In this document: in pieces, positions 6,094 through 59,374 of the stretch | Position numbering within the stretch: position 1 is the first letter of the stretch | Layout of the letters: each line of letters begins with the position of its first letter | Origin: a virus | IMG/VR virus record: IMGVR_UViG_3300046780_000427 | Coordinates: 8,059-72,058 of that record | Length of the DNA stretch: 64,000 bases | Strand: one strand, 5' to 3' | Program-made: the position numbers and the translations under genes | Notes under the pieces: model-generated | What the model was told of the DNA's origin: nothing | Databases searched by the model: none | What the model saw: only the letters and a program-made list of their open reading frames with translations

Positions 6094-6111
6094 GCCGAAG
6101 GAAGGGAACCG

Positions 6112-6698: not shown

Positions 6699-6704
6699 CC
6701 ACTC

Positions 6705-7184: not shown

Positions 7185-7185
7185 G

Positions 7186-8327: not shown

Positions 8328-8346
8328 AGGACGGAAGGGAGGCCCG

Positions 8347-34660: not shown

Positions 34661-35140
34661 ATGACCACCACCACAACCCGCCCCGGGCCCGCAGGATCGC
34701 TCCCGGGCCCGCGGGGACTACCAGCCAGCCAGGCTGAGGCCATCACGATCATCCTCGGCCTGTCCGACTCCCTCGATCAGATGCGCGCCTACGCCGGCGC
34801 GCTCTACCGCGCCGGCGTGCTCGAGGGGAGACGCCAGGCAGCCGGGTACTGCCCCGGCCACCGGGAACAGATCGCCGAAGCGTTCCTCGCGGGTGAACGC
34901 CAGGCCCGCGCCGATGACCTGCCCGCGTTTGATGCCGGGTTCGCCGCATGCTGGCAGCGGTTCGCGGTGGAGATCGCCACCAGGTCAGCGCCGCCGCGCT
35001 CCGGCAGGTGGCGGCGCCCGGTGTGCGGGGACCTGACCTGCGGCCGGGAAGCATGCCAGCCGAGACCCCGGCGGAAACGGGAACCGCACGACCAGGCAGC
35101 CATGATCACCCGTGCCCGCGAGTCCTGGGGGCTGACATGA
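34661..35140 (+). CDS. Hypothetical protein upstream of helicase
   Basis: ATGA-coupled to helicase. Confidence 0.55.
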   Translation: MTTTTTRPGPAGSLPGPRGLPASQAEAITIILGLSDSLDQMRAYAGALYRAGVLEGRRQAAGYCPGHREQIAEAFLAGERQARADDLPAFDAGFAACWQRFAVEIATRSAPPRSGRWRRPVCGDLTCGREACQPRPRRKREPHDQAAMITRARESWGLT

Positions 35141-36255
35141 CCGCACAGGACTGGTCAGACTCCATCAGCCCCGAGGAGTACGCGGCCGAGCGGATCACCG
35201 CCCTGCGCGCCTGCCTCTACCCGGTGGAGGACCTGGGGAAAATCCCGGCCCCGGTCAGCCTGGTGGACCACTGGCTCACGATGACGTCCCTCAACTGGCT
35301 GTTCGGCGACCGGGGGTCGTTCAAGTCGTTCGTGGCGATCGACTTCGCCGGGTGTGTCGGCACCGGCAAGTCATGGCACGGGCATGAGACCCGGCAGTCC
35401 CCCGTCCTGTACTGCGCGCTAGAAGGCGCACCCGGCCTCTACCAGCGGGTAAGGGCCTGGGAGGACCATGCCGGTGAGGAGATGACCGGCGTCCACTTCC
35501 TGGTCCCCAGATCCCTCCAGGTCGTGGATGACGGGGCCGTGCTCGCCGGCCTGGCTGCCGAGCTGGGCGCGGGCCTGGTCATCATCGACACGCAGAACCG
35601 TGCGACGGTCGGACTGGAGGAGAACTCCTCTATCGACATGGGCCGGATGATCGCTGCGATGGACCGGATCCAGCACGCCACCGGCGGGTGCGTCCTGACC
35701 ATCCACCACACCGCCGCCGGCTCCCACCGGCCCCGAGGCCACACGTCCATTGACGCGGCCGCTGCGGCGATGATCCGGGTGTCCTGCGACGGGGGCCTGG
35801 TCAAGGTCACCAACGAGAAGCAAAAGGACGGCCCCCGCGCGGGGATGATGCTGCTCAACGCGACCCCCCGCCTGGACTCGGTGGTCCTCACCGCGGACTC
35901 CGGGGTCGTCCTGACCGACTCGATGCGCACCGTCCTGGCCGCGTTGCGGAACCTGAATGAGACCGAAGGACCCGTGACCAACGCGCAGGTCAAACGGGCA
36001 TGCACCTCCCAGGGGATGCCGGAGGCAACGTTCAACTGGGCGCTGCGGGAGCTGAAGAACCGCGGGCAGGTCGAGCGGATCGGCCCGAAGACCGCGCCGA
36101 AGTGGCAACTGGTCGACAAACGTCAGGCCACCCTGGACGGCCCGGGGGAGACCCCGCCTGAGGCCCCGCCCGCATCCAACGGGCACCGGGAAACAGCCGA
36201 CGTGCCCGAAAGCCCGTGGGGAGCAGGGACCGCCGGTGAAGCAGCCCAGGTGTAA
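35137..36255 (+). CDS. AAA_25/RepA-like helicase with C-terminal winged helix
   Basis: Walker A GDRGSFKS, LEG, Walker B LVIIDT, ENSS, IHH, RGHTS. Confidence 0.85.
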   Translation: MTAQDWSDSISPEEYAAERITALRACLYPVEDLGKIPAPVSLVDHWLTMTSLNWLFGDRGSFKSFVAIDFAGCVGTGKSWHGHETRQSPVLYCALEGAPGLYQRVRAWEDHAGEEMTGVHFLVPRSLQVVDDGAVLAGLAAELGAGLVIIDTQNRATVGLEENSSIDMGRMIAAMDRIQHATGGCVLTIHHTAAGSHRPRGHTSIDAAAAAMIRVSCDGGLVKVTNEKQKDGPRAGMMLLNATPRLDSVVLTADSGVVLTDSMRTVLAALRNLNETEGPVTNAQVKRACTSQGMPEATFNWALRELKNRGQVERIGPKTAPKWQLVDKRQATLDGPGETPPEAPPASNGHRETADVPESPWGAGTAGEAAQV

Positions 36256-39914: not shown

Positions 39915-40133
39915 CCTGCTGGACGTGACTGGCCCGGCTGCGACGGTGGAAGCGCAGCCGGGCCAGTCCTATCCCGGGTGCCTGGTCTGCGGGGCTACTG
40001 ACCGGCCGTTGCGGGGGTTGCGGCAGGAGCCGGGGGAGGCACCGTGGCGGGTCTGCGCGGATCCTGGGCCGTGCCGGGACGCGGCCGGGCTGCCCCCGAT
40101 CTAGTTCTGCCGGCGTGGACAGAATGTCACAGG

Positions 40134-40183
40134 CCCATGCTACGGTTAACACGTAAGCAATCGACCCCCTGGAGAGAGGGAAC
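40134..40183 (+). promoter_or_regulatory. Conserved cassette leader A (extended -10, ACACGTAAGCA, GGAGAGAGGGAAC)
   Basis: tgcTACGGTtaacacgtaagca...ggagagagggaac. Confidence 0.75.
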
Positions 40184-40187
40184 CAAG

Positions 40188-41444
40188 ATGTCAACCATCA
40201 CCAACGAGGTCAACGCCCAGTTCGACACCCAGCGCGCCTCACAGATCGCCGCCTACGTCAACAACCAGGCCACCCAGGCTGACCGGATCGCCGCCGCAGA
40301 ACGCAGGGTCGCCTCCGGTGAACTGTCCGACATGGGCGGCGGGGCCTTCCGGGTCATGACCGGATGGGACCGCGGGGAAGTGTTCAACTTCGGCGCCAAC
40401 GGGCTCCTCATGCCGCAGGCCAATCTGGACCTCGCCGAGGACGGCAAGGCCCTCGGGTATTTCGCCGAGCCGGAGTGGCACGGTCTCGGCACCGTCATCC
40501 TCGGCGGCACCACCGACATCCCGCAGATCCTCCAGGTGTCCGGCGGGGACTACTACGTGGACAAGCGGATCTCCCGTGCGTTCGATGACCAGGGCAACCT
40601 GCTGGAGAACTCCGAGGGGTTCCAGACCGTCCGGCACGGCGGCGACCGGCCGGCGGCGATCCTCGGGCAGGTCGGTTCCCGGTGGACCCCGATTCAGAAT
40701 GAGGACGGGTTCGGGTTCCTGGCCGAGCTGATCGGCCGCAAGGAGATCCTGCCCGTGTCCGCGTTCCCGCTGTGGAACGGGCGGGTCTACGTGATGGCGC
40801 TGCGCCTCCCGGAGGACATCGTCCTAGACGCGCAGGGTGTCGGGGACATCATCCGGCCCTACATCATGGCCCGCAACTCCTTCGACGGGCGGACCCCGTT
40901 CCAGTGTGTCGTGACCCCGTGGCGGCCCCGCTGCTCCAACACTGAGCGGCTGGCCCTCCGGGATGCGATCACCACGTGGAAGGTCCCGCACACCACCAAC
41001 GCGCTCAAGCGCATCGATGAGGCCCGGCAGACCCTCGGCCTGACCCTCAACTATTACTCGGAGTTCGCCGCCGAGGAGGAGGCCCTGATCCACACCGACC
41101 TGACCACCCGTCAGATCGACACCCTGCTCTCGGAACTGGACGCCGAGCTGTGGCCGGAGACGACCAAGAAGGACGGCAAGGCCGAGCCGACGAAGCGGAC
41201 CGAGAAGATCCGCACGCTCCGGTCTGAGGGCCTGCGTGAGACCATCACCGAGGAGGGCGGCCAGGTCGGCCGGAACGCCTACGCGGTCGAGCGGGCCTAC
41301 ACCTCCTGGCTGGACCACTCCGCTCCCCGCCGCATGGCTGGCCTGCCCGATGGTGCCGCGAGGGCAACGGCGATCCTGGAGGGCTTCGAGGACGGTCGTA
41401 AGGACACCGTCCACAAGCGGCTGATGACCCTGGTCACCCGCTAA
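40188..41444 (+). CDS. DUF932/DUF945 family protein
   Basis: WHGLG...IQN...F...NSFDG...TPWRPRCSNT...HT. Confidence 0.85.
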   Translation: MSTITNEVNAQFDTQRASQIAAYVNNQATQADRIAAAERRVASGELSDMGGGAFRVMTGWDRGEVFNFGANGLLMPQANLDLAEDGKALGYFAEPEWHGLGTVILGGTTDIPQILQVSGGDYYVDKRISRAFDDQGNLLENSEGFQTVRHGGDRPAAILGQVGSRWTPIQNEDGFGFLAELIGRKEILPVSAFPLWNGRVYVMALRLPEDIVLDAQGVGDIIRPYIMARNSFDGRTPFQCVVTPWRPRCSNTERLALRDAITTWKVPHTTNALKRIDEARQTLGLTLNYYSEFAAEEEALIHTDLTTRQIDTLLSELDAELWPETTKKDGKAEPTKRTEKIRTLRSEGLRETITEEGGQVGRNAYAVERAYTSWLDHSAPRRMAGLPDGAARATAILEGFEDGRKDTVHKRLMTLVTR

Positions 41445-41452
41445 CCGCACCA

Positions 41453-41483
41453 GGCCCGGCCTCCCTGGCAGGGAGGCCGGGCC
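41453..41483 (+). terminator. 13-bp hairpin terminator
   Basis: ggcccggcctccc tggca gggaggccgggcc. Confidence 0.6.
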
Positions 41484-41527
41484 CCTGCTATCGTTCACAG
41501 GTATAATACCCTTTGGAGAGAGGGAAC
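41482..41527 (+). promoter_or_regulatory. Conserved cassette leader B
   Basis: cccctgcTATCGTtcacaggta...ggagagagggaac. Confidence 0.7.
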
Positions 41528-41530
41528 ACG

Positions 41531-41923
41531 ATGAAGATCACGCAGGCAGACCGGGAGGCGGCCCTGGCCGAACTCGCCGGCATGAAAGCCACCGGCACCA
41601 CGGCCCGGATCGTCGCTGACGCGTTCGCCGCCGAACTGCGCCCGCACCTGGCCAAGGAACACCGCGCCCGGACCCGCGGCCTCTACCGGGTGTGGGTGGG
41701 TGCGCAGGGACCTGAGGGCCTGTTCGGCGCCATCGACGTGTCCGTGACCTCGGGGAAGATCACCCGCGCGTACCTGACCCATGGCAACCACGGCACGGAG
41801 CGTGTCTACACCCGGGTTGCGGAGATCCGCACGGTCATCCGTTCCTGGGCGGCAGCGCGAGCGGCTGAGGCATCCCTGGATGCCCTGCTAACCGGCAAGC
41901 CCTACCCGCAGGCGGGGTCATGA
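41531..41923 (+). CDS. Hypothetical protein
   Basis: Follows leader B. Confidence 0.65.
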   Translation: MKITQADREAALAELAGMKATGTTARIVADAFAAELRPHLAKEHRARTRGLYRVWVGAQGPEGLFGAIDVSVTSGKITRAYLTHGNHGTERVYTRVAEIRTVIRSWAAARAAEASLDALLTGKPYPQAGS

Positions 41924-42174
41924 GGCCGCAGGTCGCCGCCGGCGGCCGCACCGTCACCGTCACCTTCTACCTGCCCTCGGGGGTGATCATCGCAGAGGAG
42001 GACGTGCCGATGGTCACCGAGGCCCTGACGGAGTACTCCCGCCGGCGGGAGGGCCGGACTTCGATGCTCCGCGGGCCGGAGCACGCGCAGGCCAGGGCGG
42101 AGCTGCGGGTGCAGGCCCGCCGTGCCGCCCGCCTGGTCCAGACGATCACCACCGCGAGCAGGGGGCAGTCATGA
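41920..42174 (+). CDS. Hypothetical protein
   Basis: Coupled ORF. Confidence 0.55.
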   Translation: MRPQVAAGGRTVTVTFYLPSGVIIAEEDVPMVTEALTEYSRRREGRTSMLRGPEHAQARAELRVQARRAARLVQTITTASRGQS

Positions 42175-42698
42175 CCGAGGACGGCAGGCAGGAGCAGGAA
42201 TGGGTCGCCACCGGCACCCGGGTCCTGTCCAGTGACCGGCGCGGGCAGGAGTTCCTGACCGAGACCGGGGAGCTGAAGGTGTATGCGGAGCGGGTGTCCT
42301 ACGTCATCGGCGGGATCTACACCGTCCAGACCAGTACTAAGGGCGGCTGCACCATCCGGCACGGTGAGCCTGTTTACACCGGCCGACGCCGCCCGGCGGA
42401 GGAGCGGGCCCTGTGGGAGGCTGAGGACCAGGCTGCTGAGGTCGCCTTGGACCGGGCCGCTCTAGAACGCAAGCACCGCAAGGGCGGGGCGCTGGATGAG
42501 GCCCTGGCCCCGCTGCTGGAGATCATGGCCGGGACCCGCACCGGCACCCAGCGGCAAGCGCTGATCGGCTACGTGTCTGACCGGCTCGGCGCGGCCTACC
42601 ACGAGGCGATGATTGACCGCCTCCGCAGCGAGGCCCAGGAGGCTGGCCGGGACGCGGCCAGGGCGATCAAGGCAGCCCGGAAAGCAGGAGGCAAGTGA
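42171..42698 (+). CDS. Hypothetical protein
   Basis: Coupled ORF. Confidence 0.6.
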   Translation: MTEDGRQEQEWVATGTRVLSSDRRGQEFLTETGELKVYAERVSYVIGGIYTVQTSTKGGCTIRHGEPVYTGRRRPAEERALWEAEDQAAEVALDRAALERKHRKGGALDEALAPLLEIMAGTRTGTQRQALIGYVSDRLGAAYHEAMIDRLRSEAQEAGRDAARAIKAARKAGGK

Positions 42699-43009
42699 TG
42701 AGCGGCGCATGGATAGGCACGTTCCCCTGCTGGACCCACCAGGACCGCACCGGGGAACCCGGCCAGCACTATTTCGAGGCCGACCCCGGCACGGTCATGT
42801 CCGTCCTGATAGACCCGGACACCGGCCGGCCACCAGACATCGGGGAGGACGGTGCCCCGGTGCCGATCGACCCGGACGCAGTGGCCCGGTGCATCCAGGC
42901 GTTCATCTGCCCGGACTGCCTGGCCGCGGTGAACGAGGAACGCCGGGCCCGCCCGGATCTCCCGCCCCCGGTCAAGCCCGGCGGCATCCCCTGGACGGAG
43001 CAGCCATGA
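42695..43009 (+). CDS. Zn-binding hypothetical protein
   Basis: F..DP..V.S...DP.TG.PPD...ICPDC...VN. Confidence 0.6.
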   Translation: MMSGAWIGTFPCWTHQDRTGEPGQHYFEADPGTVMSVLIDPDTGRPPDIGEDGAPVPIDPDAVARCIQAFICPDCLAAVNEERRARPDLPPPVKPGGIPWTEQP

Positions 43010-43185
43010 CCGCTCACATCGCAAAGATCACCCCGCTGCAAGACGGGTTCAAAGTCACCTGCCCGGAGGGCTGCAACCTGGGCACGTCCGCCTGGCAGGA
43101 CACCCAGCAGGACGCGGAACGGCGCGCCGAGCTGCACTCGGTAGCTACGGCTCCCCTGGGCCTGCTGCACCGGGAGGCACGATGA
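43006..43185 (+). CDS. Small hypothetical protein
   Basis: Coupled; CPEGC...H. Confidence 0.5.
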   Translation: MTAHIAKITPLQDGFKVTCPEGCNLGTSAWQDTQQDAERRAELHSVATAPLGLLHREAR

Positions 43186-43469
43186 GCGGCATCGTGTGGC
43201 CCTCGGAGGTGTACCGGGCAGTCATCGCAGACGCCCGGGATGCGCTCCGTGACGCGGAGGAGGACCGGGACAGGTGGCAGGTGCACGCCCAGGCTGACCA
43301 CGCCGCCTTGGGCCGCGCCTGGTCCTGCATCGGCTCCTGGATGGAGGTCGCCGGCAGGTGGCCTGATGACCTCGGCCTCACCGCCACCGGGCTGCACCCG
43401 CCGACCCTGCGGGCCTGCACGGCCGCGCTACAGGCCCGCATCATCGAGCAGGAGGAGTCCGATGACTAA
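43182..43469 (+). CDS. Hypothetical protein
   Basis: Coupled ORF. Confidence 0.55.
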   Translation: MSGIVWPSEVYRAVIADARDALRDAEEDRDRWQVHAQADHAALGRAWSCIGSWMEVAGRWPDDLGLTATGLHPPTLRACTAALQARIIEQEESDD

Positions 43470-43866
43470 CCCCGCAGACCTGGCAGAGATCACCCGCCGC
43501 CACGGCCGCCAGCACACCACGAACCCGCGTCAGGACTACTGCCCTGCTGACAACCAGGACTGGCCCTGCGACGTGGCCCGCCTCCTGGAGGCACTGGAGT
43601 CCTCCCGCGGGGACGGCGCGGCGCTGGCAGCGGCCACGTGGTCAGGGATCGAAGCCGCTGAGGCCGCGCTGGCCGTGGCCGCTGATGTCCTCAACCGGGT
43701 CAAACTGGCAGCAGGGCCGACGATGGAACTGGACCCCGAGGGCAAGACCCTCGGCTTGCACAACGCCGGGGCCTGCTCGACGTGCCGCCTGACCCACACC
43801 CTGACCGGAGCCGGGGAGCTGAACATGGCGATCCTGGCCGCCCGAGCACAAGGAGGAGATCACTGA
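43462..43866 (+). CDS. Hypothetical protein
   Basis: YCPAD.QDWPCD motif; GGAGGAG RBS. Confidence 0.6.
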   Translation: MTNPADLAEITRRHGRQHTTNPRQDYCPADNQDWPCDVARLLEALESSRGDGAALAAATWSGIEAAEAALAVAADVLNRVKLAAGPTMELDPEGKTLGLHNAGACSTCRLTHTLTGAGELNMAILAARAQGGDH

Positions 43867-44192
43867 TGCCCGCTGAGGATGGCCTGCTGTGGCCTGAGGA
43901 GGTCGCCGCGAAGGCCGGATGGACCGCGAAGACGCTCCGCGCGCAGGTCGCCGCGTCCAAGAAACTCCAGGAGGCCGGCACCCTGGGCCCCCATCACCTG
44001 CCGATGCCCGCCGACCGCAGGCTCCGCCCCCATGACCGGACCCCGGCGAACCCGACCGGGAAGGGCGCCAAGTGGCAGAACCTATGGCGGCCCGGGGACA
44101 TCGAGGCGTGGCTGCCGAACCGCCGCAGGCCGGGGAACCCGGACGGGTTCGCCGCCTCACACGCTGCCGCCCGGGCCCGCCGTGGCAGCTAA
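43866..44192 (+). CDS. AlpA/excisionase-like HTH DNA-binding protein
   Basis: LLWPEEVAAKAGWTAKTLR...LPMP.D...LW....IEAW...R. Confidence 0.65.
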   Translation: MPAEDGLLWPEEVAAKAGWTAKTLRAQVAASKKLQEAGTLGPHHLPMPADRRLRPHDRTPANPTGKGAKWQNLWRPGDIEAWLPNRRRPGNPDGFAASHAAARARRGS

Positions 44193-44325
44193 CCTGGCCT
44201 GCGCGCATCTGCACTGCACCTACTGTGAGGCGCCGCTGCGGCGGGATGGGTCCTGCTGCGGCGAACCCCATGACCTGCCCTACCGTGAACGGGTAACAGC
44301 GCCCAGGTCAGGCACAATAGGCGCC

Positions 44326-44574
44326 ATGACAACTTCCCCCGCACCGATGACCGCCCCGGCCGGGCCGGCCTCCCAGCGGCATGTCGAAACGTCGATCACC
44401 CTCGCCAAGGGTGAGACCCTGACCGTCGCCCACCTGATCCAGCTCACCACCGACGCCGCCGCCGTGGGCCTGCCCGTGGAGGCGACTGTGCGGGTCGAGA
44501 ACCGCATCAGCGGCAAACCTATGCGGCTCACCGTGGCAGGCGAGGCGCCGGTCACAGTGTCAAGGCATGATTGA
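44326..44574 (+). CDS. Hypothetical protein
   Basis: ATG 7 nt after CACAAT, possibly leaderless. Confidence 0.5.
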   Translation: MTTSPAPMTAPAGPASQRHVETSITLAKGETLTVAHLIQLTTDAAAVGLPVEATVRVENRISGKPMRLTVAGEAPVTVSRHD

Positions 44575-44576
44575 CA
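44558..44576. promoter_or_regulatory. TGTCAA-N7-TTGACA palindrome at start of DNA modification operon
   Basis: tgtcaa ggcatga ttgaca. Confidence 0.7.
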
Positions 44577-44577
44577 G

Positions 44578-45147
44578 GTGACCGACACCCAGCCTGAGGC
44601 AGCGTTCCGGCTAGGCCCCCAGCAGTTCGACCCCGCTATACCTGTTGAGTCGATCAGCGAGCACCCCCGCAACCCGAACGAGGGCGACATCGGGGCCATC
44701 CATGAGTCGATGGGGCAGCACGGGTTCGTCGGGGCGATCATGGTTCAGCGGTCCACCGGGTATGTCCTGGACGGCAACCACACCTACCGGACTGCTGTCG
44801 CGAAGGGTGCCCTGACCCTGCCCGGGTTCTGGCTTGACGTGGATGATGATGAGGCCCTGCGGATCCTCATGGATATCAACCACACCGCCCGCCTCGGCCG
44901 CGACGACCTGGCCCTGGCCTCCGCGCTCCTGCTGGATTTGCGCGGCCGCGGGGACCTGCCCGCGTCCTACTCCGATGACGACCTGCAGCAGATGCTTGAT
45001 GACCTGTCCGGGCCGGCGGCGCCGGATGAGTTCCCCGAGTACGGCGACGACATCAGCACCGAGCACGAATGCCCCCGCTGCGGGTACGCCTTTAGCGGTG
45101 GCACTAAGCGGCCTGTGGGCGCTGAGGACGCCGGCGCGGGCCCATGA
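44578..45147 (+). CDS. ParB/sulfiredoxin-like N-terminal domain protein with C-terminal Zn ribbon
   Basis: HPRNPNEGD...SM..HGF...VLDGNH...HECPRCGY. Confidence 0.8.
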   Translation: MTDTQPEAAFRLGPQQFDPAIPVESISEHPRNPNEGDIGAIHESMGQHGFVGAIMVQRSTGYVLDGNHTYRTAVAKGALTLPGFWLDVDDDEALRILMDINHTARLGRDDLALASALLLDLRGRGDLPASYSDDDLQQMLDDLSGPAAPDEFPEYGDDISTEHECPRCGYAFSGGTKRPVGAEDAGAGP

Positions 45148-46640
45148 CCCGGGTGCTCCTGCGCCTGCACCACCACGGCCAGGATTACCGTTGGGCTGAT
45201 GTGACCGACCGGCCGATGCCGACGATCAACACTATCGGGATCAGCGACCTCGGCAGCACAGGCCCGGATGGCATCATGATCGCGCCCACCCTGGGAGGCC
45301 CCGTGCCCGTAGTCGACAAACCGCCGTACCGGGTCCCGGGCATGGGAGAGATCCGGGCCCTGGAGTGGAACGGGTTTACCGCCGCGTCCACGTTCTCGGG
45401 GTGCGGCGGCGGGTGCCTGGGCCTGGAGATGGCCGGCTACCGGATCGGGTGGGCAAGCGAGTTCATCCCCGCCGCCGCTGACACCTACGCCGCGAACCAC
45501 CCTGGCGTGCACCTGGACACCAGGGACATCCGGCAGGTTGACCCGCAGGAGGTCCTGGACATCATGGGCCTGAAGGTGGGGGAGCTGGCCCTGCTCGAGG
45601 GGTCGCCGCCGTGCGCCGCGTTCTCCACCGCCGGGGTCAGGTCGGCGGGGTGGAATCAGCCGCGGAAATATTCGGACACGGTGCAGCGCACTGATGACCT
45701 GTTCGGGGAGTACTGCCGGATGATTGAGGGCCTGCGCCCGGCCGTGTTCACCGCCGAGAACGTCTCCGGCTTGGTCAAGGGTGTGGCGAAGGGGTATTTC
45801 AAGGAGATCCTGGCCCGGATGAAAGCCGCCGGCTACCAGGTGCAGGCCCGACTGTTGGACGCTTCGTGGCTGGGGGTGCCGCAGGCGAGGCAGCGGATCT
45901 TTTTCGTCGGCGTCCGCGAGGACCTGGGTATGGCCCCGGCCTACCCCAAGCCGCTCCCCTACCGGTATTCGGTGCGGGATGCGTTGCCGCACATCCTCGC
46001 CCAGGGCGCCAATACCGAGTTCGGTCAGGCAGCCTGGGAGGACGGGTCCCGGCCCTCGGGGAGCCTGGGCGCGGACCCGTCCACCGGTAATGGGCTGTCG
46101 CCGCCTGGGCATGTGCTCGAAGTCGCGGAGATCATCACCCAGCGGGGGCCCAAGGAAGAGCCGCAGTACTCCGCTGGGGACATCACTGACCGGCCCGCGC
46201 CGGCGGTCTTGGAGCGGAACGGGAACTATCAGGTCGCCGGCCCGACTGGGGTCACGCATGACCCGGAGACCGGCGCGGACATCACCATCGGCCGGTATGC
46301 CATCGGGAAGGAATGGCTGCGCCTGGCCGAGGGGCAGAAGTCGGGCCGTTACCAGCAGCTATGGCGTCCCGATGATGGCCGGCCCGTGCCGACGCTGACC
46401 GCCCGCGCCGGCGCCGAGGGCGTCGCCGGGGTGATGCACTGGGCGGAATGCCGCAAGCTCACGTTGGGGGAGCTGCGGGCCCTGTGCGGGTTCCCCCCGG
46501 ACTTTGTCCTCACCGGGTCCTATAAGCAACGGTGGGAACGGCTCGGCCGGGCGGTGCCGCCGGTGATGATGGCGCACCTGGCCGCAGCGATCCGGGACCA
46601 GATCCTGGTCCCGCTCCGCGCGGATGGGAGGATCGGGTAA
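45144..46640 (+). CDS. C5-cytosine DNA methyltransferase variant, predicted carboxymethyltransferase (motif X Asn replaced by Arg)
   Basis: Motifs I FSGCGG, IV GSPPC..FS, VI ENV, VIII PQARQRIFFVG, IX RKLT..E...LCGFP; X reads LGRAVPP instead of LGNAVPP. Confidence 0.9.
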   Translation: MTRVLLRLHHHGQDYRWADVTDRPMPTINTIGISDLGSTGPDGIMIAPTLGGPVPVVDKPPYRVPGMGEIRALEWNGFTAASTFSGCGGGCLGLEMAGYRIGWASEFIPAAADTYAANHPGVHLDTRDIRQVDPQEVLDIMGLKVGELALLEGSPPCAAFSTAGVRSAGWNQPRKYSDTVQRTDDLFGEYCRMIEGLRPAVFTAENVSGLVKGVAKGYFKEILARMKAAGYQVQARLLDASWLGVPQARQRIFFVGVREDLGMAPAYPKPLPYRYSVRDALPHILAQGANTEFGQAAWEDGSRPSGSLGADPSTGNGLSPPGHVLEVAEIITQRGPKEEPQYSAGDITDRPAPAVLERNGNYQVAGPTGVTHDPETGADITIGRYAIGKEWLRLAEGQKSGRYQQLWRPDDGRPVPTLTARAGAEGVAGVMHWAECRKLTLGELRALCGFPPDFVLTGSYKQRWERLGRAVPPVMMAHLAAAIRDQILVPLRADGRIG

Positions 46641-48041
46641 GTGTGCGGCATCCTCGCCGCGGCCGCCCAGGTGGACCTGTGGCTGGCCCTCGGCAGCCTG
46701 GAGCACCGCGGCCCCGACGCGCAGGCGTGGCAGGAGCATGCCGGGGTCTCACTCGGGCAGACCCGGCTGGCTATCCAGGACCTCGCCCCGGCCGGCGGCG
46801 GCCTGTTCACGGCGGGCCCGGTGGTCTGCGCCTACAACGGGGAGCTGTTCAACGGCCCGGAGGTCCGGAGCCTGGTCGAGGCTGCCCGCCCGGGCTACGT
46901 GTGGCACACCCACGGGGACACGGAGACCGTCACCGCCGCCCTCGGCGTCCTGCACCCGCAGGACGCCCTCGCCGCCTTCGACGGCATGTTCGCCGTCGCC
47001 TGGGCTGACACCCGGCACCCGGGGGTCCTGTTCTGCGCGAGGGACAGGTTCGGGGAGATCCCCCTGCACATCCACCGGCACATCCCGGCGCTGGTCGCCT
47101 CAGAGATCAAAGCGTTCGCCGCGCTTGGCCGCAGGTGCGGCGACGCGGTGATGGAGATCCCCCCGGCGTCGGTGTGCTCGATCCGGCATGCCGGCGCGCA
47201 GGTCACCGTCTCCCGGTACCTCCCTGCCCTGCCACCGGTCCCCGCACCTCCCACGGACCCGCCCGCGGAACTGCGCCGCCGGATCCGCGCCGGGGTGACC
47301 GCCCGGCTGATCAGCGACGCCCCGATATGCACGCTGCTGTCCGGTGGGCTGGACTCCGCGGTGATCGCCTACGAGCTGGGCCTCCTGGTCCCGGGCCTGG
47401 TGGCCTACACCGCGGTCATGGACAAGCACTCCCCCGACCTCCGCGCCGCTAGGGTCTGCGCGGAGCATCTTGGGGTGGAGCTGCGTGAGGTCACCATCGA
47501 CCCGCCGTCCGCCGATGACCTGGCGAACGTGGTGCGGCAGATCGAGCAGCCGCACAAGGCGCAGGTGGAGATCGGGTGGCCGTGCCTGGCACTGGCCAGG
47601 CAGATCCGTGAGGACGGGTTCAAGGTCACCTACTCCGGGGAAGGCGCCGATGAACTGTGGGCCTCCTACGGGTTCGCCTACCACGGCGTCAAGCAGCACG
47701 GCTGGTTTGGGTACCGGTTGCGGTTGATCACCGAGCAGCACCGGAAGAATTTCCCGAGGGTCAATAAGGCGTTCATGGCCCACGCGGTGGAGGCACGGTT
47801 GCCGTGGCTGGACCCCGGTGTCGTCGGCGTGGCCCTCGCCCTCCCGGTGGGCCTGGTCCGCACCCGTGGCCGGCTCAAAGGCATCGTGGAGGACGCCTAC
47901 CACGACGTACTGCCGGGCAAGATCCTGGCCCGGTCCAAACTGGCATTCCAGGACGGCCTGGGGATGAAGGAAGCCGCCGCCTCGGTGGCGGTCAAACCAA
48001 GGGAGTTCTACGGTGTCGAGTACCGCCGGGCATATAGCTGA
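46641..48041 (+). CDS. asnB: Asparagine synthetase B-like glutamine amidotransferase
   Basis: MCGI Ntn nucleophile, HRGPD, RLAI, NGELFN, RDRFG, LLSGGLDS, SGEGADEL. Confidence 0.9.
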   Translation: MCGILAAAAQVDLWLALGSLEHRGPDAQAWQEHAGVSLGQTRLAIQDLAPAGGGLFTAGPVVCAYNGELFNGPEVRSLVEAARPGYVWHTHGDTETVTAALGVLHPQDALAAFDGMFAVAWADTRHPGVLFCARDRFGEIPLHIHRHIPALVASEIKAFAALGRRCGDAVMEIPPASVCSIRHAGAQVTVSRYLPALPPVPAPPTDPPAELRRRIRAGVTARLISDAPICTLLSGGLDSAVIAYELGLLVPGLVAYTAVMDKHSPDLRAARVCAEHLGVELREVTIDPPSADDLANVVRQIEQPHKAQVEIGWPCLALARQIREDGFKVTYSGEGADELWASYGFAYHGVKQHGWFGYRLRLITEQHRKNFPRVNKAFMAHAVEARLPWLDPGVVGVALALPVGLVRTRGRLKGIVEDAYHDVLPGKILARSKLAFQDGLGMKEAAASVAVKPREFYGVEYRRAYS

Positions 48042-48807
48042 ACCTGCCAGGGTCGAGGGACTGCGGGACCTGGCCCCCGATCCCAGGTCGGACCTGGCTG
48101 GCCGGTTCCCCGGCGGCGGGTGGCAGTTCACCTCCGAAGTCGCAGCGGTGTTCGATGATCATGTGCGCGCGTCGGTGCCGTTCTACGATGCGATCCAGTC
48201 GCTGATCGCGGAGCTGGCGGACTGGCTCCTCCCCGCGGGGGGCCTCCTGGCCGACCTGGGTTGCTCGACGGGGAACACTGCCGCGGCGATCCTCATGCGG
48301 CAGCCCGACCGGGGCCTGCGCGTGCACCTGTACGACGAGTCGGTGCCGATGCTGGCCAAGGCCCGGCCCATGCTCGAGGGGCTGGCACCGGGCCGCGTGG
48401 CAGCGACGATCGGCCGGCTCCCCGGTGAGGGACTGGAACACGCCGGCGCGGACCTGACGGTGGCCGCGTTCCTGCTCCAGTTCCTGCCCTGGGCGGACAG
48501 GTTCCGGCTGCTGTGCATGGCCCGGGCGGCGGCTGCGGAGACGGGTGCGCTGATCCTCGCGGAGAAGACCCGCCCCGCTGACTCCCGGTGGGCGGAGATC
48601 GCCGCTGAGGTCTCCCACGATGTGAAGGAATCCAACGGGATCACCGCCGGGGAGATCCGGGCCAAGGCCCGGTCGCTGCGCGGCGTCCTGCTCCCCGGCC
48701 GCCTGGACTATGTGATGGCACAGGCCGAGGAGGCCGGGTGGTGTTCCCCGGAGGTCCTGTTCCGGTGGCATTCGTGGGCAGTGATCGGCGCGTTCGCTAC
48801 GCCCTGA
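48013..48807 (+). CDS. cmoA: CmoA-like carboxy-S-adenosylmethionine synthase
   Basis: WQF..EVA.VFDD.V..SVPFY, DLGCSTG, LQFL, LILAEK, HD.K..NG....EI..K...L.GV, collinear with CmoA. Confidence 0.8.
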   Translation: MSSTAGHIAEPARVEGLRDLAPDPRSDLAGRFPGGGWQFTSEVAAVFDDHVRASVPFYDAIQSLIAELADWLLPAGGLLADLGCSTGNTAAAILMRQPDRGLRVHLYDESVPMLAKARPMLEGLAPGRVAATIGRLPGEGLEHAGADLTVAAFLLQFLPWADRFRLLCMARAAAAETGALILAEKTRPADSRWAEIAAEVSHDVKESNGITAGEIRAKARSLRGVLLPGRLDYVMAQAEEAGWCSPEVLFRWHSWAVIGAFATP

Positions 48808-48828
48808 GGCTGGACACCCTCCCGCTAA

Positions 48829-48873
48829 CCCCTGCTACTGTTCACAGGTAAGCATTCCCCTGGAGAGAGGGAC
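48829..48873 (+). promoter_or_regulatory. Conserved cassette leader C
   Basis: cccctgcTACTGTtcacaggtaagca...ggagagagggac. Confidence 0.75.
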
Positions 48874-48880
48874 ACCTGAA

Positions 48881-49321
48881 ATGGCTGCAACCGCCACCAC
48901 CACCCGCAAGGCCGGCGACGTGATCGGCGTAGACCACCCGGACTACGACGGCCAGCGCTGGGTGATCAGCAAGGCCGGCCCCGCCAACTACTCCTGCCGC
49001 CCCGAGGGCGACCCGCAGGCCCGCGGCCTCCGGGTCCCGCACTACATGGCCACCGACCCGCCCGAGGCCGGCACCGTGTCCCGCCGGACCAACCGCCCCG
49101 CCGGCCTGCGCGTCGGCGCGTTCGTCACCGGCGCCCGTGCCCGTGGCCTCACCCCCGAGACTGTCCTGTTCGTCACCAAGGACGGCCCGGACAAGGTGAC
49201 CGTGACCCTCCCCGGCGGCGACGACCTGTGCCGGCACTGGAACCTCCCGGTCCGTGGCCTGACCGTGGTCCCGCTCAGCGTCGCCGCCGAGATGCTGTAC
49301 CGGGAGCACTGCTCCGCGTGA
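48881..49321 (+). CDS. Hypothetical protein (SH3/KOW-like)
   Basis: Follows leader C; ends before a hairpin at ~49332-49367. Confidence 0.65.
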   Translation: MAATATTTRKAGDVIGVDHPDYDGQRWVISKAGPANYSCRPEGDPQARGLRVPHYMATDPPEAGTVSRRTNRPAGLRVGAFVTGARARGLTPETVLFVTKDGPDKVTVTLPGGDDLCRHWNLPVRGLTVVPLSVAAEMLYREHCSA

Positions 49322-49396
49322 CCCTGTGACTGCCCGCCCGAGCCGGCCTGCCCCGGTCCGGGCGGGTTCATGTTCCCTATGGGCAACTGTCCCTAA

Positions 49397-49439
49397 CCCC
49401 TGCTACTGTTGACACGTAAGCAACCCGGAGAGAGGGAAC
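49397..49439 (+). promoter_or_regulatory. Conserved cassette leader D
   Basis: cccctgcTACTGTtgacacgtaagca...ggagagagggaac. Confidence 0.75.
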
Positions 49440-49442
49440 CCG

Positions 49443-49658
49443 ATGACTGACATGACCGAATGGAACAGGGCCTACACCGAGGCCAACACCGCCGCCCTGA
49501 CCAGCTACAAGGCATATTCGCTGCCTGACCTCGCCGCCGCGAAGCGGGCCCTGTGCGACACCTCCCAGCTGGTCAACTACCCGGACCTGCCCTCACAGGG
49601 ACGCCTCGACGGCACCATCGCCGCCGTTGACACCCTGATGGAGAGGATCGCCCGATGA
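49443..49658 (+). CDS. Hypothetical protein
   Basis: Follows leader D. Confidence 0.65.
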   Translation: MTDMTEWNRAYTEANTAALTSYKAYSLPDLAAAKRALCDTSQLVNYPDLPSQGRLDGTIAAVDTLMERIAR

Positions 49659-49972
49659 GCACGTTCACTACTGCCCCGGCGTCGAACACCCGCGTCGTCG
49701 TTGACCACGACACCTACGGCCAGTACATCGGCCAGACCGGCACCGTTGTTGAGATCACCCCCGCGCTGGCCGCGATCAAGTCCGTTGACCTGACCGGGAC
49801 CGTGTGGGTGTACCTGGACGGGCAGCGGGACTATGATGCGACCTCCGGTTATGCCAGGTCTGAGCCGGTCGGGTTCGACCCGTCTGAGCTGGCCCCCGCC
49901 GTGACCGTTGGCACCCCGGACCTGACTACTGACACGGACCTGATCGAGCACGCCGCCAAGACGGCCTCATGA
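49655..49972 (+). CDS. Hypothetical KOW-like protein
   Basis: YIGQTGTVVE...V.LD...F.PSEL. Confidence 0.6.
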   Translation: MSTFTTAPASNTRVVVDHDTYGQYIGQTGTVVEITPALAAIKSVDLTGTVWVYLDGQRDYDATSGYARSEPVGFDPSELAPAVTVGTPDLTTDTDLIEHAAKTAS

Positions 49973-49984
49973 CCCCGAGGCCCT

Positions 49985-50027
49985 AACAGTCCTCCTGCCC
50001 CGGCATCAAGGCCGGGGCAGGGCTGTT
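49985..50027 (+). terminator. Hairpin terminator
   Basis: cctgccccggc atcaag gccggggcagg with flanking aacag/ctgtt. Confidence 0.6.
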
Positions 50028-50183
50028 CTGGGTAGTCGATACCTGGCGTGCCCTTCCCGGGCCGCCATGGTGCCGCGTGGCGCTGCTGGCGCTATGCCTG
50101 GCGATACCGGGGCCGCAAGATGAGCTACTACTCATCGCCATCACTGCTCTACTCCGCGCACGGAAGGCAAGGAAGGAAGCGGC

Positions 50184-50342
50184 ATGACGCCATATGCCAA
50201 AGCGAGGGCATTCATGCTAGGCGTGATTGAGTTTCGCCGCACCTGGACTACGCACATTTCCGACGATTGTATTAATGCCTATGACCGCGGGCGGGAGATT
50301 GCTCATCGTCTCACGCTGCGTAGATGGGAAGACGAGTCATGA
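50184..50342 (+). CDS. Small hypothetical protein (low-GC cassette)
   Basis: AAGGAAGG RBS; MTPYAKARAFMLGVIEFR...AYDRGREIAHRLTLRRWE. Confidence 0.6.
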   Translation: MTPYAKARAFMLGVIEFRRTWTTHISDDCINAYDRGREIAHRLTLRRWEDES

Positions 50343-50443
50343 CTCAGGAACAGATACAGGCCATTGCGGATGCCTGCCACCAACACGGCTACAACTTCGA
50401 GCTAGCACTGCGCACGGCGCAGCGTGACGGCGTACCGCTCTAA
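50339..50443 (+). CDS. 34-aa hypothetical protein
   Basis: ATGA-coupled to 50184..50342. Confidence 0.4.
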   Translation: MTQEQIQAIADACHQHGYNFELALRTAQRDGVPL

Positions 50444-50499
50444 TGTCCGGGTGAGCGTGACCCTGGCCTGACCCAGGGCCTAGGACGGGCGCGGCGGGC

Positions 50500-50518
50500 T
50501 GTCAACAAACTGTTGACA
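50500..50518. promoter_or_regulatory. TGTCAA-N7-TTGACA palindrome upstream of leader E
   Basis: tgtcaa caaactg ttgaca. Confidence 0.75.
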
Positions 50519-50542
50519 GGAGGGATGGTCTCCCCCGCCGCG

Positions 50543-50586
50543 CCCCTGCTATTCTGAACACGTAAGCAGGACCCGGAGAGAGGGAC
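50543..50586 (+). promoter_or_regulatory. Conserved cassette leader E
   Basis: cccctgcTATTCTgaacacgtaagca...ggagagagggac. Confidence 0.75.
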
Positions 50587-50590
50587 CCAG

Positions 50591-50887
50591 ATGATCGACT
50601 ACAGCACCACCGCAGAGATCGAATTCGGCGACCCTGAGACCATCGAGGTCGGCCAGCTCCAGGTAGGCGACTACGTGGTGAGCATCCCGGCGCAGGGCAG
50701 GACCCGAGGCACCAACGTCCGGTCAGCGGTCAAGCAGATCACCGAACGGCCGACCGGCTGGTACACCCAGTCCAGGCCCCGCGGCCCGAAGTTCCCGATC
50801 CCCTCGCGGGTGCTGGCGTTCCTGTCCACCGAGGACAGGTTCGACGTGGCCTGCTCCTACCAGGTGATCGTCCGCCGCCCGATCTGA
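50591..50887 (+). CDS. Hypothetical protein
   Basis: Follows leader E. Confidence 0.65.
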   Translation: MIDYSTTAEIEFGDPETIEVGQLQVGDYVVSIPAQGRTRGTNVRSAVKQITERPTGWYTQSRPRGPKFPIPSRVLAFLSTEDRFDVACSYQVIVRRPI

Positions 50888-57083: not shown

Positions 57084-57437
57084 ATGGCCACAGCAACCCG
57101 CACCACCAGCAAGCTTGAGGACATCCCGCTGGACCGGCACTCCAACTTGGAGACCTGGGTCCGCGGGTGGCACAACCGGCTCCGCAACCAGGCGTATGCG
57201 ATTGAGCTGGGCGCGGCGGAGCTGCAGGGGTTCCTGGGCCGGGCCAAGGGCCTGGAGAAGTTCGCCGCCCGGCAGAAAGCCCGCCGGGTGGCCCGCAGGT
57301 TCAAGCGGGCCGCGCGCCTGTCCGAGGCCGCCGCGTCAGAGTTCTCCCGCGGGATGACCGCCTACCGGCGGGAGTACCCCGAACTGATCAGCCCCCGCAA
57401 GTCGGGTAAGGCCGGCGGGTTCAACTTCAACTCATGA
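57084..57437 (+). CDS. traA: Actinomycete plasmid transfer protein TraA-like
   Basis: KARRVARRFKRAA...A....AYRREY pattern, directly upstream of and coupled to TraB. Confidence 0.55.
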   Translation: MATATRTTSKLEDIPLDRHSNLETWVRGWHNRLRNQAYAIELGAAELQGFLGRAKGLEKFAARQKARRVARRFKRAARLSEAAASEFSRGMTAYRREYPELISPRKSGKAGGFNFNS

Positions 57438-59374
57438 GCACGTCAGTGCGGAAGACCGCCGGGGAGGCCCGGGACAAGGCGGTGGAGCACCACATCTCCC
57501 GGGCCGTCCTCCTGGTCCCGCCGTGGGTCGGATCGTTCCTGCTCCTCCCCCTCGGCCTGATCCTTCATCAGGAGTTCCCCGGCGCCGCGTACGCGGCCGG
57601 GGTCCTGGCCGTGGCCCTGGTCCTCGCAGCGCTAGCCTTCCATGTCACCCACGACAGGTCCGCTGTCGGCCGGCTCCACATCCTGGTCACCGCCGCCGCC
57701 GCCGGCACCTGGCTCGCCGCGGCCGACGTGGCCGGGTTCACCGTCAAGGGCGTGTGGTTCACCTACCTGATCGTGGCGATCGGCGGCGCGGTGTCGTGGA
57801 ACCTGCGCGGCATGGCCCGGCACCAGGCGATGGGTGACCTGCTCGGGCACCTGTTCGCCTCGGCGCATGACGCCGCCGGCCTGGAAGGCGCACAGGCCAG
57901 GTTCTACCCGCAGGAACCCGGGTCCAAGGTGCTCCGCGGCAAGGCCCTCGGGGTACGCGGGGCGCACACCTCCAAGTCGTTTGTCGACGCGGCCCGCAAC
58001 GTGGAGTCCGCCGCCGGCCTGCCGCCAGGGTCGATCAACTACTCCCGCAACGGGTCCGATGGCGCGGCCGCGGACATGACCGTCTCAGACCCCAGGGCGA
58101 TCGACACCTCACCCGCCTGGCCGGGGCCTTCGGCTCCGGGTGCCAGCGTGGCCAAACCGCTGCGGGTGGCGATGTGGCAGACCGGCGAATGGACCGGGTT
58201 CCGCCTGGTCCCCGCGCATCACATCCTGATCGCCGGGATGACCGGCGCCGCCAAGTCCACCAGCGCGGGGTGGTCGCTGCTCGCGGAACTGGTCACCCGC
58301 CATGACGTGAAGGTTTATGCCGCGGACACGGTGAAGGGTGAGCAGACCCTCGGCGCGTTCCGCCCCTGCCTCGCCACCGACGCCCCGGGGTGTGAGGGCG
58401 GCATCCTCACCGACCCCGACCACGCCGCCGGGCTGCTCGCCTGGGCCAGGGCGCAGATCCGCCCGAGGACCGACTACCTGGCCTCCAAGGGGGTCATGGA
58501 ATGGCAGGAAAGCTGCGGTATTGACCTGCTGGTGTTCTGGCTGGAGGAGGCACCCGACTTCATCGACCACGCCGGGGAGGCCGCCGCTGAGGAGTGGGTC
58601 AAGTCGATGAAAGCCGCCAGGTCGGCGGGGATCATCTTCGTCTACTCCTGCCAGCGGCCGGACTGGTCCCAGATGCCCACCATCGCCCGGGCACAGTTCG
58701 CCGGCCGGGTCGCGATGGGTGTCAACACCTCCGGTGACGCGGACCTGTGCATCACCGAACGGCAGGACCGCGCCGGGTGTGAGCCGGAGCACTGGGCCGA
58801 CCGGGAGAAAGGCAAGGCGTACCTGGACGGCCCGTGGGTCACCGATGAGCAGGTCCCGCTGACGGCCCGGTTCTGCTTCTGGGGACGGGACTCCTCGCTG
58901 ATCACCGAGCACTGCCGGGCATTCGCCCGGCAGGCTACTGCGCCCGCACCAGGAGGAGGACCTGTGGGCATCTTCGACCGTTTCCGTGACCCTGACCCCG
59001 CCGGCCTGGCCGACGACGAGGACCTGTACGCCGACACTAGGACACCTGAGGATGAGGCCCTGTCGGTCCTCGGCCCCGACGACGACCCGGTGCCTGAGGC
59101 GGCCAGCCTGGAGCCTTCGGGGACCGAGTGGGTGTTCGGTGAGGAGGCACCACCGGAGGACGCACCCGAAGCCGACGCCGAGCAGGCGTTCGACAAGTGG
59201 CTGGCTGAGCGGGCCCGCATGGGTCAGCGGACGTTCCGTGCCGCCGACCTGGTGGAGATGCGCGCCAGTTGCGGCCGGTCCCGGTCGTGGGTGTATGACC
59301 AGCTCCAGGTCCGTGTTGCCCGCGGGCAACTGTCCCGCGGTGAGGGCACCTGGACAATCCGGGACGCCGCATGA
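57434..59374 (+). CDS. traB: TraB-type FtsK/SpoIIIE conjugative DNA translocase
   Basis: 4 N-terminal TM helices; Walker A AGMTGAAKS; WLEEA Walker B; ARSAGI...QRP; acidic linker; C-terminal winged helix (GRSRSWVYDQL). Confidence 0.8.
   Translation: MSTSVRKTAGEARDKAVEHHISRAVLLVPPWVGSFLLLPLGLILHQEFPGAAYAAGVLAVALVLAALAFHVTHDRSAVGRLHILVTAAAAGTWLAAADVAGFTVKGVWFTYLIVAIGGAVSWNLRGMARHQAMGDLLGHLFASAHDAAGLEGAQARFYPQEPGSKVLRGKALGVRGAHTSKSFVDAARNVESAAGLPPGSINYSRNGSDGAAADMTVSDPRAIDTSPAWPGPSAPGASVAKPLRVAMWQTGEWTGFRLVPAHHILIAGMTGAAKSTSAGWSLLAELVTRHDVKVYAADTVKGEQTLGAFRPCLATDAPGCEGGILTDPDHAAGLLAWARAQIRPRTDYLASKGVMEWQESCGIDLLVFWLEEAPDFIDHAGEAAAEEWVKSMKAARSAGIIFVYSCQRPDWSQMPTIARAQFAGRVAMGVNTSGDADLCITERQDRAGCEPEHWADREKGKAYLDGPWVTDEQVPLTARFCFWGRDSSLITEHCRAFARQATAPAPGGGPVGIFDRFRDPDPAGLADDEDLYADTRTPEDEALSVLGPDDDPVPEAASLEPSGTEWVFGEEAPPEDAPEADAEQAFDKWLAERARMGQRTFRAADLVEMRASCGRSRSWVYDQLQVRVARGQLSRGEGTWTIRDAA

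Follow-up and report, generated by a model that had tools for sequence, protein, structure and literature searches.

A four-gene phage cassette predicted to carboxymethylate and then amidate cytosine in DNA

In a 64,000-nt stretch of viral DNA (hereafter the window; bases 8059-72058 of IMG/VR record IMGVR_UViG_3300046780_000427, a 72,058-bp single-contig virus rated 79% complete), four consecutive genes at 44578-48807 encode a ParB-like protein, a homologue of DNA cytosine C5-methyltransferases (MTases), a ligase with the fold of asparagine synthetase B (AsnB) and a homologue of CmoA, the synthase of carboxy-S-adenosyl-L-methionine (Cx-SAM). With moderate confidence we read this cassette as a post-replicative hypermodification system of the CmoA/CmoX/ligase type, which would put a carboxymethyl group on cytosines of the phage DNA and then amidate it. 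The cassette is a further member of a kind already published, and the amide-forming variant has already been predicted. For phage S-B43, Yang et al. (Nat Commun 2025, PMC12783734) report that CmoA makes Cx-SAM, that CmoX makes 5-carboxymethylcytosine (5cxmC) at GC sites, and that the AsnB-family ligase SpCmoY (271 aa) attaches glycine to 5cxmC already in DNA. The survey over IMG/VR v4 described there collected 5,615 CmoX candidates and 2,251 ligase sequences, and the CmoX contigs hold CmoA, ligases forming adenosine monophosphate (AMP) and ParBc-domain proteins. For one ligase cluster, with A0A7T0Q3R0 as its named exemplar, the proposed amine is glutamine-derived ammonia (PMC12783734). We confirmed that A0A7T0Q3R0 is gp124 of Streptomyces phage TurkishDelight.

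A preliminary description of the locus, made from the DNA letters alone, had proposed the route from Cx-SAM through 5cxmC to the amide. Every sequence test that we ran fits this route; its chemistry is a prediction, and our literature searches found no other paper on the pathway and none reporting the amide base, 5-carbamoylmethylcytosine, in any DNA. The same description had mentioned reports of natural phage carboxymethyltransferases beside CmoA homologues, and the paper on S-B43 documents them. It had also expected the amidation and the actinobacterial host to be the new part, which is not so: both stand in that paper as a prediction, with an exemplar from a Streptomyces phage. What we add here is an argument from ligase swapping, a motif shared between ligase classes, counts of gene linkage, the exceptions to it, and a model of the ParB-like partner.

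The cassette and its CmoX homologue

The four open reading frames (ORFs) lie head to tail on the + strand of the window, whose G+C content is ~70%, and all were recovered where the preliminary description had placed them. The first (44578..45147, 189 aa) encodes the ParB/Srx-fold protein, recognised by PHROG matches and by AlphaFold2 (AF2) and Foldseek; the second (45144..46640, 498 aa) encodes a homologue of the CmoX-type DNA cytosine C5-carboxymethyltransferase; the third (46641..48041, 466 aa) encodes an amide ligase of the AsnB fold, of the glutamine-hydrolysing and AMP-forming type, which is the enzyme predicted to amidate 5cxmC; and the fourth (48013..48807, 264 aa) encodes a homologue of CmoA-like carboxy-SAM synthases. 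The stop codon of the ParB-like gene overlaps the start of the MTase gene in the ATGA at 45144-45147, the AsnB-like gene begins with the GTG at 46641 immediately after the MTase TAA (0-nt spacing), and the CmoA-like gene begins with the GTG at 48013, 29 nt within the AsnB-like gene. Each of the four starts is preceded by a Shine-Dalgarno-like stretch of the GGAGG/GAGGA/AAGG type, 7-14 nt on its 5' side, and the G+C content at third codon positions (GC3) in the annotated frames is 0.84-0.91. The tight coupling claimed for these genes is thus borne out by coordinates, strand and overlaps or 0-nt spacing.

Upstream of the ParB-like gene, a 231-aa ORF (43879-44574) was rejected as listed, its product being of low complexity and without a family match; when compared with the second ParB-like protein of TurkishDelight, gp121, it showed no likeness to it. 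GC3 by frame places only the last ~270 nt of this ORF in the coding frame, and indicates that three small + strand genes (~43470-43866, 43866-44192 and 44200-44574) fill 43470-44574. The last of them ends 3 nt ahead of the ParB-like start, so that the transcription unit probably starts upstream of the four-gene cassette. A promoter and terminator scan of 41400-50700 gave sites no more frequent than in shuffles, and a scan of the window for tRNAs gave no tRNA genes. In Escherichia coli, CmoA works together with CmoB on tRNA (cmo5U34); the CmoA fold and family are shared here, but the acceptor enzyme is a DNA C5-MTase homologue, and CmoB, already described as absent from the window, was not found in the whole 72,058-bp record either, TIGR00452 having no match in this 79%-complete sequence.

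The second gene product belongs to the C5-MTases by its family matches (PF00145, 1.4e-49; TIGR00675, 9.3e-45). Its best solved relative is SpCmoX of S-B43 (8YF3, 8.9e-56), to which it is 32% identical across the full length, and the next one, HaeIII (5.5e-22), follows at a distance of 34 orders of magnitude. The published survey collected CmoX candidates by two criteria, the SPPC motif and R350 of SpCmoX; in the crystal structure, 8YF3, which is Cx-SAM-bound, R350 contacts the carboxylate of Cx-SAM, and SpCmoX does not accept S-adenosyl-L-methionine (SAM) (PMC12783734). Both features are found in the window protein: S154-P155-P156-C157 aligns to S95-C98 of SpCmoX, and R469, in E-R-L-G-R-A-V-P-P, aligns to R350, in E-R-V-G-R350-M-V-P-P, at the position held by N304 in HhaI. 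G468-R469 therefore stands where ordinary C5-MTases have G-N (motif X). Further CmoX motifs are E205-N206-V207 and Q247-x-R249-x-R251, and the motif residues, including the SPPC and the R469 equivalent, are invariant in 25 homologues. Since both published features are present, the identification of the window MTase as a CmoX-type carboxymethyltransferase is well supported, and the first two steps of the predicted pathway are backed by defining features. A precedent for the role of this position is the engineered M.MpeI N374K, in which a basic residue in place of the motif X Asn lets a C5-MTase use Cx-SAM (PMC12783734); that enzyme is engineered and CpG-specific, whereas the one in the window is natural and carries Arg. 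The window protein also has a ~58-aa non-conserved N-terminal extension and a variable (target-recognition) region longer than that of SpCmoX, for which no characterised relative appeared among the matches found.

The fourth gene product has CmoA as its best family match (TIGR00740), matches E. coli CmoA (PDB 4GEK, 1.1e-21) and PHROG 4752 (5.7e-48), and is 23% identical to SpCmoA over 223 aa (E 1e-16).

The AsnB-like ligase and its conserved linkage

The third gene product combines PF00733 (1.2e-39) with a GATase_7 domain (6.7e-20), has TIGR01536 as its top family match, and matches E. coli AsnB (PDB 1CT9) at 1.8e-34. Its AF2 model, with a predicted local distance difference test (pLDDT) of 87.2, superposes on 1ct9 with a Foldseek template modelling (TM) score of 0.86, and it has the same two-domain fold, N-terminal Cys glutaminase and PP-loop as E. 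coli AsnB and human ASNS. The N-terminus is M-C-G-I, with Cys2 as the nucleophile. Against a set of AsnB catalytic residues, the glutaminase residues C2, R42, N66, E68 and D93 align to AsnB C1, R49, N74, E76 and D98, the PP-loop S234-G-G-L-D-S239 is retained, and so are E334, D337, E338, R373 and K433, the equivalents of AsnB E348, D351, E352, R387 and K449. K466 and E364 of human ASNS were among the reference residues (PMC6748925). In 25 AsnB-like homologues there is no variation in the glutaminase residues, the PP-loop, E334 or K433; that the glutaminase site is intact and invariant speaks for ammonia as the amine.

The ligase departs from asparagine synthetases in several respects. It scores below both AsnB equivalog cut-offs (TIGR01536, 222.8 against 267.1; NF006949, 202.1 against 499), it lacks the last ~90 residues of AsnB and a 14-residue loop, AsnB D384 (human D400) corresponds to N370, an Asn invariant in the 25 homologues, and the TTIR segment is replaced by K306-A-Q-V-E310, invariant in the family. 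We take TTIR to have a role in aspartyl-AMP formation. Taken together, these differences argue against a housekeeping asparagine synthetase. Moreover, K-x-x-x-E is common to the AsnB-like family and to four CmoY-type ligases (of S-B43, an Erwinia jumbo phage, PaBG and a Staphylococcus phage), whereas the E. coli and human enzymes carry T-T-I/V-R at this place. As regards the published ligase clusters, whose network threshold is E 1e-56, about 30% identity (PMC12783734), the window ligase falls outside the SpCmoY cluster, with which it shares little sequence (24% identity to SpCmoY over 173 aa, E 3e-6) and from whose synthetase-only architecture it departs by an extra 200-aa glutaminase domain. 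It falls within the A0A7T0Q3R0 cluster: it is 55% identical to TurkishDelight gp124 over residues 1-465 (E 6e-142), beyond that threshold, it has the glutaminase domain, and it lies between CmoX and CmoA. Isoelectric points and net charge, considered as a hint of DNA binding, were uninformative (5.3-9.5 in both ligase classes).

The preliminary description had called for a survey of the co-occurrence of the three enzymes, and its outcome favours the association. The search for loci was made with an alignment of 25 AsnB-like relatives, as a single-protein query returned nothing; the best 80 of 116 IMG/VR loci and 25 genome loci were sampled, and 106 loci were compared in all. A locus was assigned to the AsnB-like family when it held a relative at ≥35% identity over ≥400 residues, which applied to 92 of the 106. 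A CmoX homologue was present in 83 of these 92 loci, and in seven of the nine without it the contig runs out ≤131 bp away on the flank that should hold CmoX. The motif GSPPC occurs in 82 of the 83 CmoX homologues and the tail E-R-x-G-R-x-V-P-P in 78, the other five being cut by contig ends (three) or explained by ORF-call overruns (two). By a local hidden Markov model search, a CmoA homologue was found in 88 of the 92 loci, and for two of the remaining four the contig breaks off on the side that should carry the gene. As a control, neither CmoX nor CmoA was found in any of the 14 loci having only distant AsnB homologues. In actinobacterial-type loci the gene order is ParB-like, CmoX, AsnB-like, CmoA, and in most marine loci it is CmoA, AsnB-like, CmoX; a ParB-like match was obtained in 25 of the 92 loci, all of them actinobacterial-type.

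The cassette of S-B43 is the closest characterised system, with Cx-SAM supplied by CmoA, a CmoX with SPPC and Arg (8YF3), and an ATP-dependent AsnB-family ligase acting on 5cxmC. It differs in that SpCmoY has 271 aa, no glutaminase domain and uses glycine, while the window ligase has 466 aa and an intact glutaminase domain; moreover, the order in S-B43 is CmoA-CmoY-CmoX, with no ParB-like gene at the locus, and the target of SpCmoX is GC. Some marine contigs (for instance L024 and L029) encode a CmoX 91% identical to SpCmoX and a CmoA 85% identical to SpCmoA, and in contigs of this type the gene between the two is not the 271-aa CmoY but a 465-aa member of the AsnB-like family (39% identical to that of the window). 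The ligase module alone seems to have been exchanged here, in a cassette whose CmoA and CmoX are essentially those characterised in S-B43. Such a swap, together with the shared K-x-x-x-E and the action of CmoY on 5cxmC-DNA, suggests that the AsnB-like ligase probably acts on 5cxmC in DNA. The amidation step is thus well supported as a prediction, by genomic context and by residues.

The genes gp122-gp125 of TurkishDelight (NC_073473) are the same four, in the same order, with the same annotated 29-nt AsnB/CmoA overlap and the same predicted chemistry. The window proteins are 53% (CmoX), 55% (AsnB-like), 59% (CmoA, gp125) and 29% (ParB-like) identical to them; the window CmoX has in addition the ~58-aa N-terminus and a variable region ~40 residues longer, and the TurkishDelight cassette is at the right genome end, with the second ParB-like gene, gp121, upstream. 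A megablast of the operon against cultured phages gave no match, and the terminase large subunit of the window matches only actinobacteriophages, at ≤38% identity; what is shared with TurkishDelight is therefore limited to the cassette. The same cassette was also seen inside integrated prophages of Nonomuraea cavernae and of a Streptosporangium sp. chromosome (L084 and L090), with an integrase gene ~5 kb upstream of it and the genes for the terminase large subunit and the portal immediately downstream, which indicates that temperate actinophages carry it too.

The ParB-like protein

The product of the first gene had no Pfam or NCBIfam match at default thresholds, and PF02195 appeared only at E 0.046 (14.2 against a cut-off of 26.3). 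It matches PHROG 723, 8071 and 620 at 1e-20 to 3e-19, and many of its homologues carry PF02195. In its AF2 model (pLDDT 88.4) an N-terminal ParB-N-like domain is followed by a helical linker and a conserved C-terminal tail, and the top Foldseek matches, at probability 1.00, are ParB-CDP (6sdk, E 1.2e-6), Noc, KorB, PadC and sulfiredoxin. The homologues share an H-P-x-N-x-x-x-G-D motif, a G-N-H motif and the tail, which in the window protein consists of F152-P153 followed by T-E-H-x-C165-P-x-C168-x-Y-x-W-S-G. The box II of chromosomal ParB that binds cytidine triphosphate (CTP) reads G-E-R-R-x-R; at this place the window protein has G66-N67-H68-T-Y-R71, and by alignment with Spo0J the box II arginines are replaced. 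G66 is invariant, and N67 and H68 nearly invariant, in 40 ParB-like homologues.

Modelled as a complex, the ParB-like protein and CmoX gave an ipSAE, the interface score, of 0.69 (runs 0.69, 0.70 and 0.65), and all three controls gave 0.00; in the tool's calibration set, 58 of 80 solved complexes attained this mark, as did 2 of 110 mismatched pairs; these counts are approximate here, custom alignments having been supplied for both chains. At least 42% of the contacts agree between runs, and the pLDDT of the partners is at least 65. The confident interface joins residues 148-161 of the ParB-like protein to CmoX 211, 216-224, 234-242, 252 and 267-274. The ParB-like gene also lies directly 5' of CmoX in TurkishDelight and in Pseudomonas phage PaBG. 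The complex model suggests a probable role for the ParB-like protein as a DNA-binding accessory, attached to CmoX by its conserved C-terminal tail.

In PaBG (L113, 125896-129859), a ParB-like gene, a CmoX-like gene, a CmoA-like gene, a small ORF and the gene of a 274-aa CmoY-type ligase stand in a row, so that the pairing of ParB-like protein and CmoX reaches beyond actinophages. Candidate fusions of the two proteins were rejected, as the four long ORFs that include CmoX or lie upstream of it in L018, L020, L022 and L025 show only PF00145; their extra N-termini are probably due to ORF over-extension in GC-rich DNA. A group of proteins of 719-760 aa (P0245, P0249, P0265, P0281, P0285 and P0290), one cluster of which has 57 member sequences, combines a pyridoxal phosphate (PLP)-dependent domain (PF00291, ACC-deaminase-like), a ParB-like domain close to that of the window and a PF01555 domain, and may represent another DNA modification enzyme with unusual chemistry.

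The predicted pathway, its alternatives and the phage context

In the pathway that we favour, the CmoA homologue, judged by its homology to SpCmoA and E. coli CmoA, would make carboxy-SAM from SAM and host prephenate. Cys157 of CmoX would then attack C6 of the cytosine and the carboxymethyl group of Cx-SAM would be transferred to C5, giving 5-carboxymethylcytosine, as the two diagnostic features of SpCmoX suggest, while Arg469 would hold the carboxylate of the cofactor. The PP-loop site of the AsnB-like ligase would adenylate the carboxylate of 5cxmC in DNA, which the ligase would then amidate with ammonia freed from glutamine at its Cys2 site, yielding 5-carbamoylmethylcytosine (dC + 57 Da). 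According to the complex model, the ParB-like protein would assist as a DNA-binding accessory docked on CmoX via its C-terminal tail. The likely benefit, by analogy with base modifications of other phages, would be the shielding of phage DNA from host restriction. The preliminary description had compared the product with the Mom modification of phage Mu. The likeness holds for the predicted chemical group (-CH2-CONH2) and for its place in a phage DNA modification, but not beyond: Mu carries the group on N6 of adenine (N6-carbamoylmethyladenine) instead of C5 of cytosine, and reaches it by an unrelated route with unrelated enzymes.

Several points weigh against this pathway. The CmoA homologue scores below the NCBIfam equivalog cut-off (TIGR00740, 1.5e-30, 106.7 bits against 193.3); with the same model the biochemically validated SpCmoA reaches 115.6 bits and E. 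coli CmoA 455, so that this cut-off does not separate active phage CmoAs. E. coli CmoA Arg199, which we take to contact the Cx-SAM carboxylate, aligns to A219 of the window protein, with R220 adjacent; in SpCmoA the position is E188, with K189 adjacent, and phage CmoAs share K-x-[KR]-x-L-R at this place. Two members of the AsnB-like family with intact motifs, neither of them at a contig end, have no CmoX or CmoA nearby. One (L017, record G001) is encoded by a complete, terminally repeated 115,197-bp phage genome, rated 100% complete, in which no C5-MTase, CmoA or CmoX match (PF00145, TIGR00740 and P0002) was found anywhere; its ligase (6001-7413) is 44% identical to that of the window and has the M-C-G N-terminus and an intact K-x-Q-V-E. 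The other (L092) lies among cellular genes of a Chloroflexi metagenome-assembled genome. The link between the family and 5cxmC is thus not a strict one, and the L017 ligase may serve another carboxylated substrate. Just downstream of the latter we noted a radical-SAM gene (7815-9245) and a sliding-clamp-like gene. As for the docking of the ParB-like protein, the complex score is a measure of model confidence, obtained with custom alignments, and the 55 longer ParB-like homologues are fusions to N4/N6 MTases (PF01555), with PF00145 in none of them. Furthermore, the ligase keeps the acidic SGEGxDE pocket (E334, D337 and E338), so its substrate may be an amino-acid-like small molecule such as Cx-SAM. 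Finally, the authors of PMC12783734 obtained no soluble enzyme from the A0A7T0Q3R0 ligase cluster.

The pocket bears on a first alternative, namely that the ligase amidates a small molecule before the transfer, for example Cx-SAM to S-carbamoylmethyl-S-adenosylhomocysteine, and that CmoX then transfers the amidated group, with the same end product. In human ASNS the SGEGxDE pocket is modelled to hold the α-amino group of aspartyl-AMP (PMC6748925); here the pocket and R373 are kept, an α-amino acid moiety of the sort around which they were modelled is present in Cx-SAM, and the ligase resembles AsnB (1.8e-34) much more closely than it does SpCmoY, which acts on DNA (E 3e-6). We nevertheless consider this order of events improbable, since the partner CmoX keeps the carboxylate-binding Arg in 25 of 25 homologues, the marine cassettes pair the ligase with a CmoX 91% identical to a proven user of Cx-SAM, and K-x-x-x-E is shared with CmoY-type ligases, of which SpCmoY works on 5cxmC-DNA. 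The pocket, in our view, could equally bind the N4 amino group of cytosine.

That the ligase is instead a true asparagine synthetase, or a metabolic amidotransferase carried as an auxiliary gene, with plain 5-carboxymethylcytosine as the final base, seems to us unlikely to a similar degree. The complete set of AsnB catalytic residues and the complete fold, the top match to TIGR01536 and the two family members that occur without CmoX or CmoA would agree with it. It is opposed by the scores below both equivalog cut-offs and the missing C-terminal residues and loop, by the invariant Asn for D384 and K-A-Q-V-E for TTIR, by the translational coupling between CmoX and CmoA and the linkage to them (83 and 88 of 92 loci), and by the fact that in S-B43-like cassettes the ligase fills the exact slot of CmoY. 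Use by the ligase of an amine different from ammonia, comparable to the glycine of SpCmoY, with some other role for the glutaminase domain, is very improbable: related cassettes do use different amines and more are expected (PMC12783734), but all five catalytic positions of the glutaminase, the N-terminal Cys among them, show no variation in 25 homologues, which would be unexpected for a vestigial domain. An ordinary SAM-dependent MTase forming 5-methylcytosine beside neighbours unrelated to DNA has in its favour the generic C5-MTase names of the Pfam and NCBIfam matches, and is hardly credible given G-R for G-N in motif X, the Cx-SAM-specific SpCmoX as the closest structure and the conserved linkage to CmoA.

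Returning to amidation of 5cxmC in DNA, a broader proposal can be put forward tentatively, as possible but doubtful in its entirety: that the virion DNA of this phage and of its relatives holds 5-carbamoylmethylcytosine; that the stand-alone ParB-fold protein clamps CmoX via its tail and brings it to DNA, as a non-covalent counterpart of the ParB-MTase fusions; and that ligases of this clade act, too, on carboxylated substrates which arise without CmoX. The tail elements F152-P153 and the H-x-C-P-x-C knuckle might, with the same reserve, form part of this clamp.

If the amide is confirmed, 5-carbamoylmethylcytosine would join the natural DNA bases, and the 5cxmC handle would be capped in at least two ways, with glycine in cyanophages and with ammonia in actinophages and many marine phages. 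The published exemplar of the ligase cluster is insoluble, and the window and ~90 loci supply orthologues at 38-58% identity; moreover, TurkishDelight is a cultured phage, whose DNA is open to direct analysis. The predicted docking of the ParB-like tail suggests a function, open to testing, for a domain that occurs widely beside, or fused to, phage DNA methyltransferases and to which none has been assigned. The current names of these genes, 'asparagine synthase', 'tRNA methyltransferase' and 'DNA methylase', mask a DNA hypermodification pathway.

As for the rest of the record, it is that of a tailed phage, with a tape-measure protein, a RecE/RecT pair and a primase-helicase, and its host is inferred to be actinobacterial from the terminase matches and the G+C content. 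The RecT-like and RecE-like pair lies at 30535-32816 on the - strand, and the primase/helicase-like protein (34948-36255), a DUF932 protein (40044-41444) and an FtsK/terminase-like ATPase (57434-59374) are encoded on the + strand. A run of genes on the - strand at 22686-25483 encodes a YdjM-like membrane protein (22686-23282), a GT2-like glycosyltransferase (23252-23941), a Methyltransf_24 protein (24135-24716) and a protein whose PHROG matches bear the names glycosyltransferase and DNA methyltransferase (24713-25483), and could be a second modification module or one for a surface glycan. A second, larger ParB-like protein of 486 aa (26059-27519, - strand; phrog_6218, 1.9e-38, no Pfam match) belongs to the leftward block, far from the cassette. 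Lastly, a 1,710-aa protein encoded 3' of the tape-measure gene (13766-18898, + strand), without a PHROG match, carries He_PIG, PKD-like and other immunoglobulin-like domains and is probably a tail or host-recognition protein.

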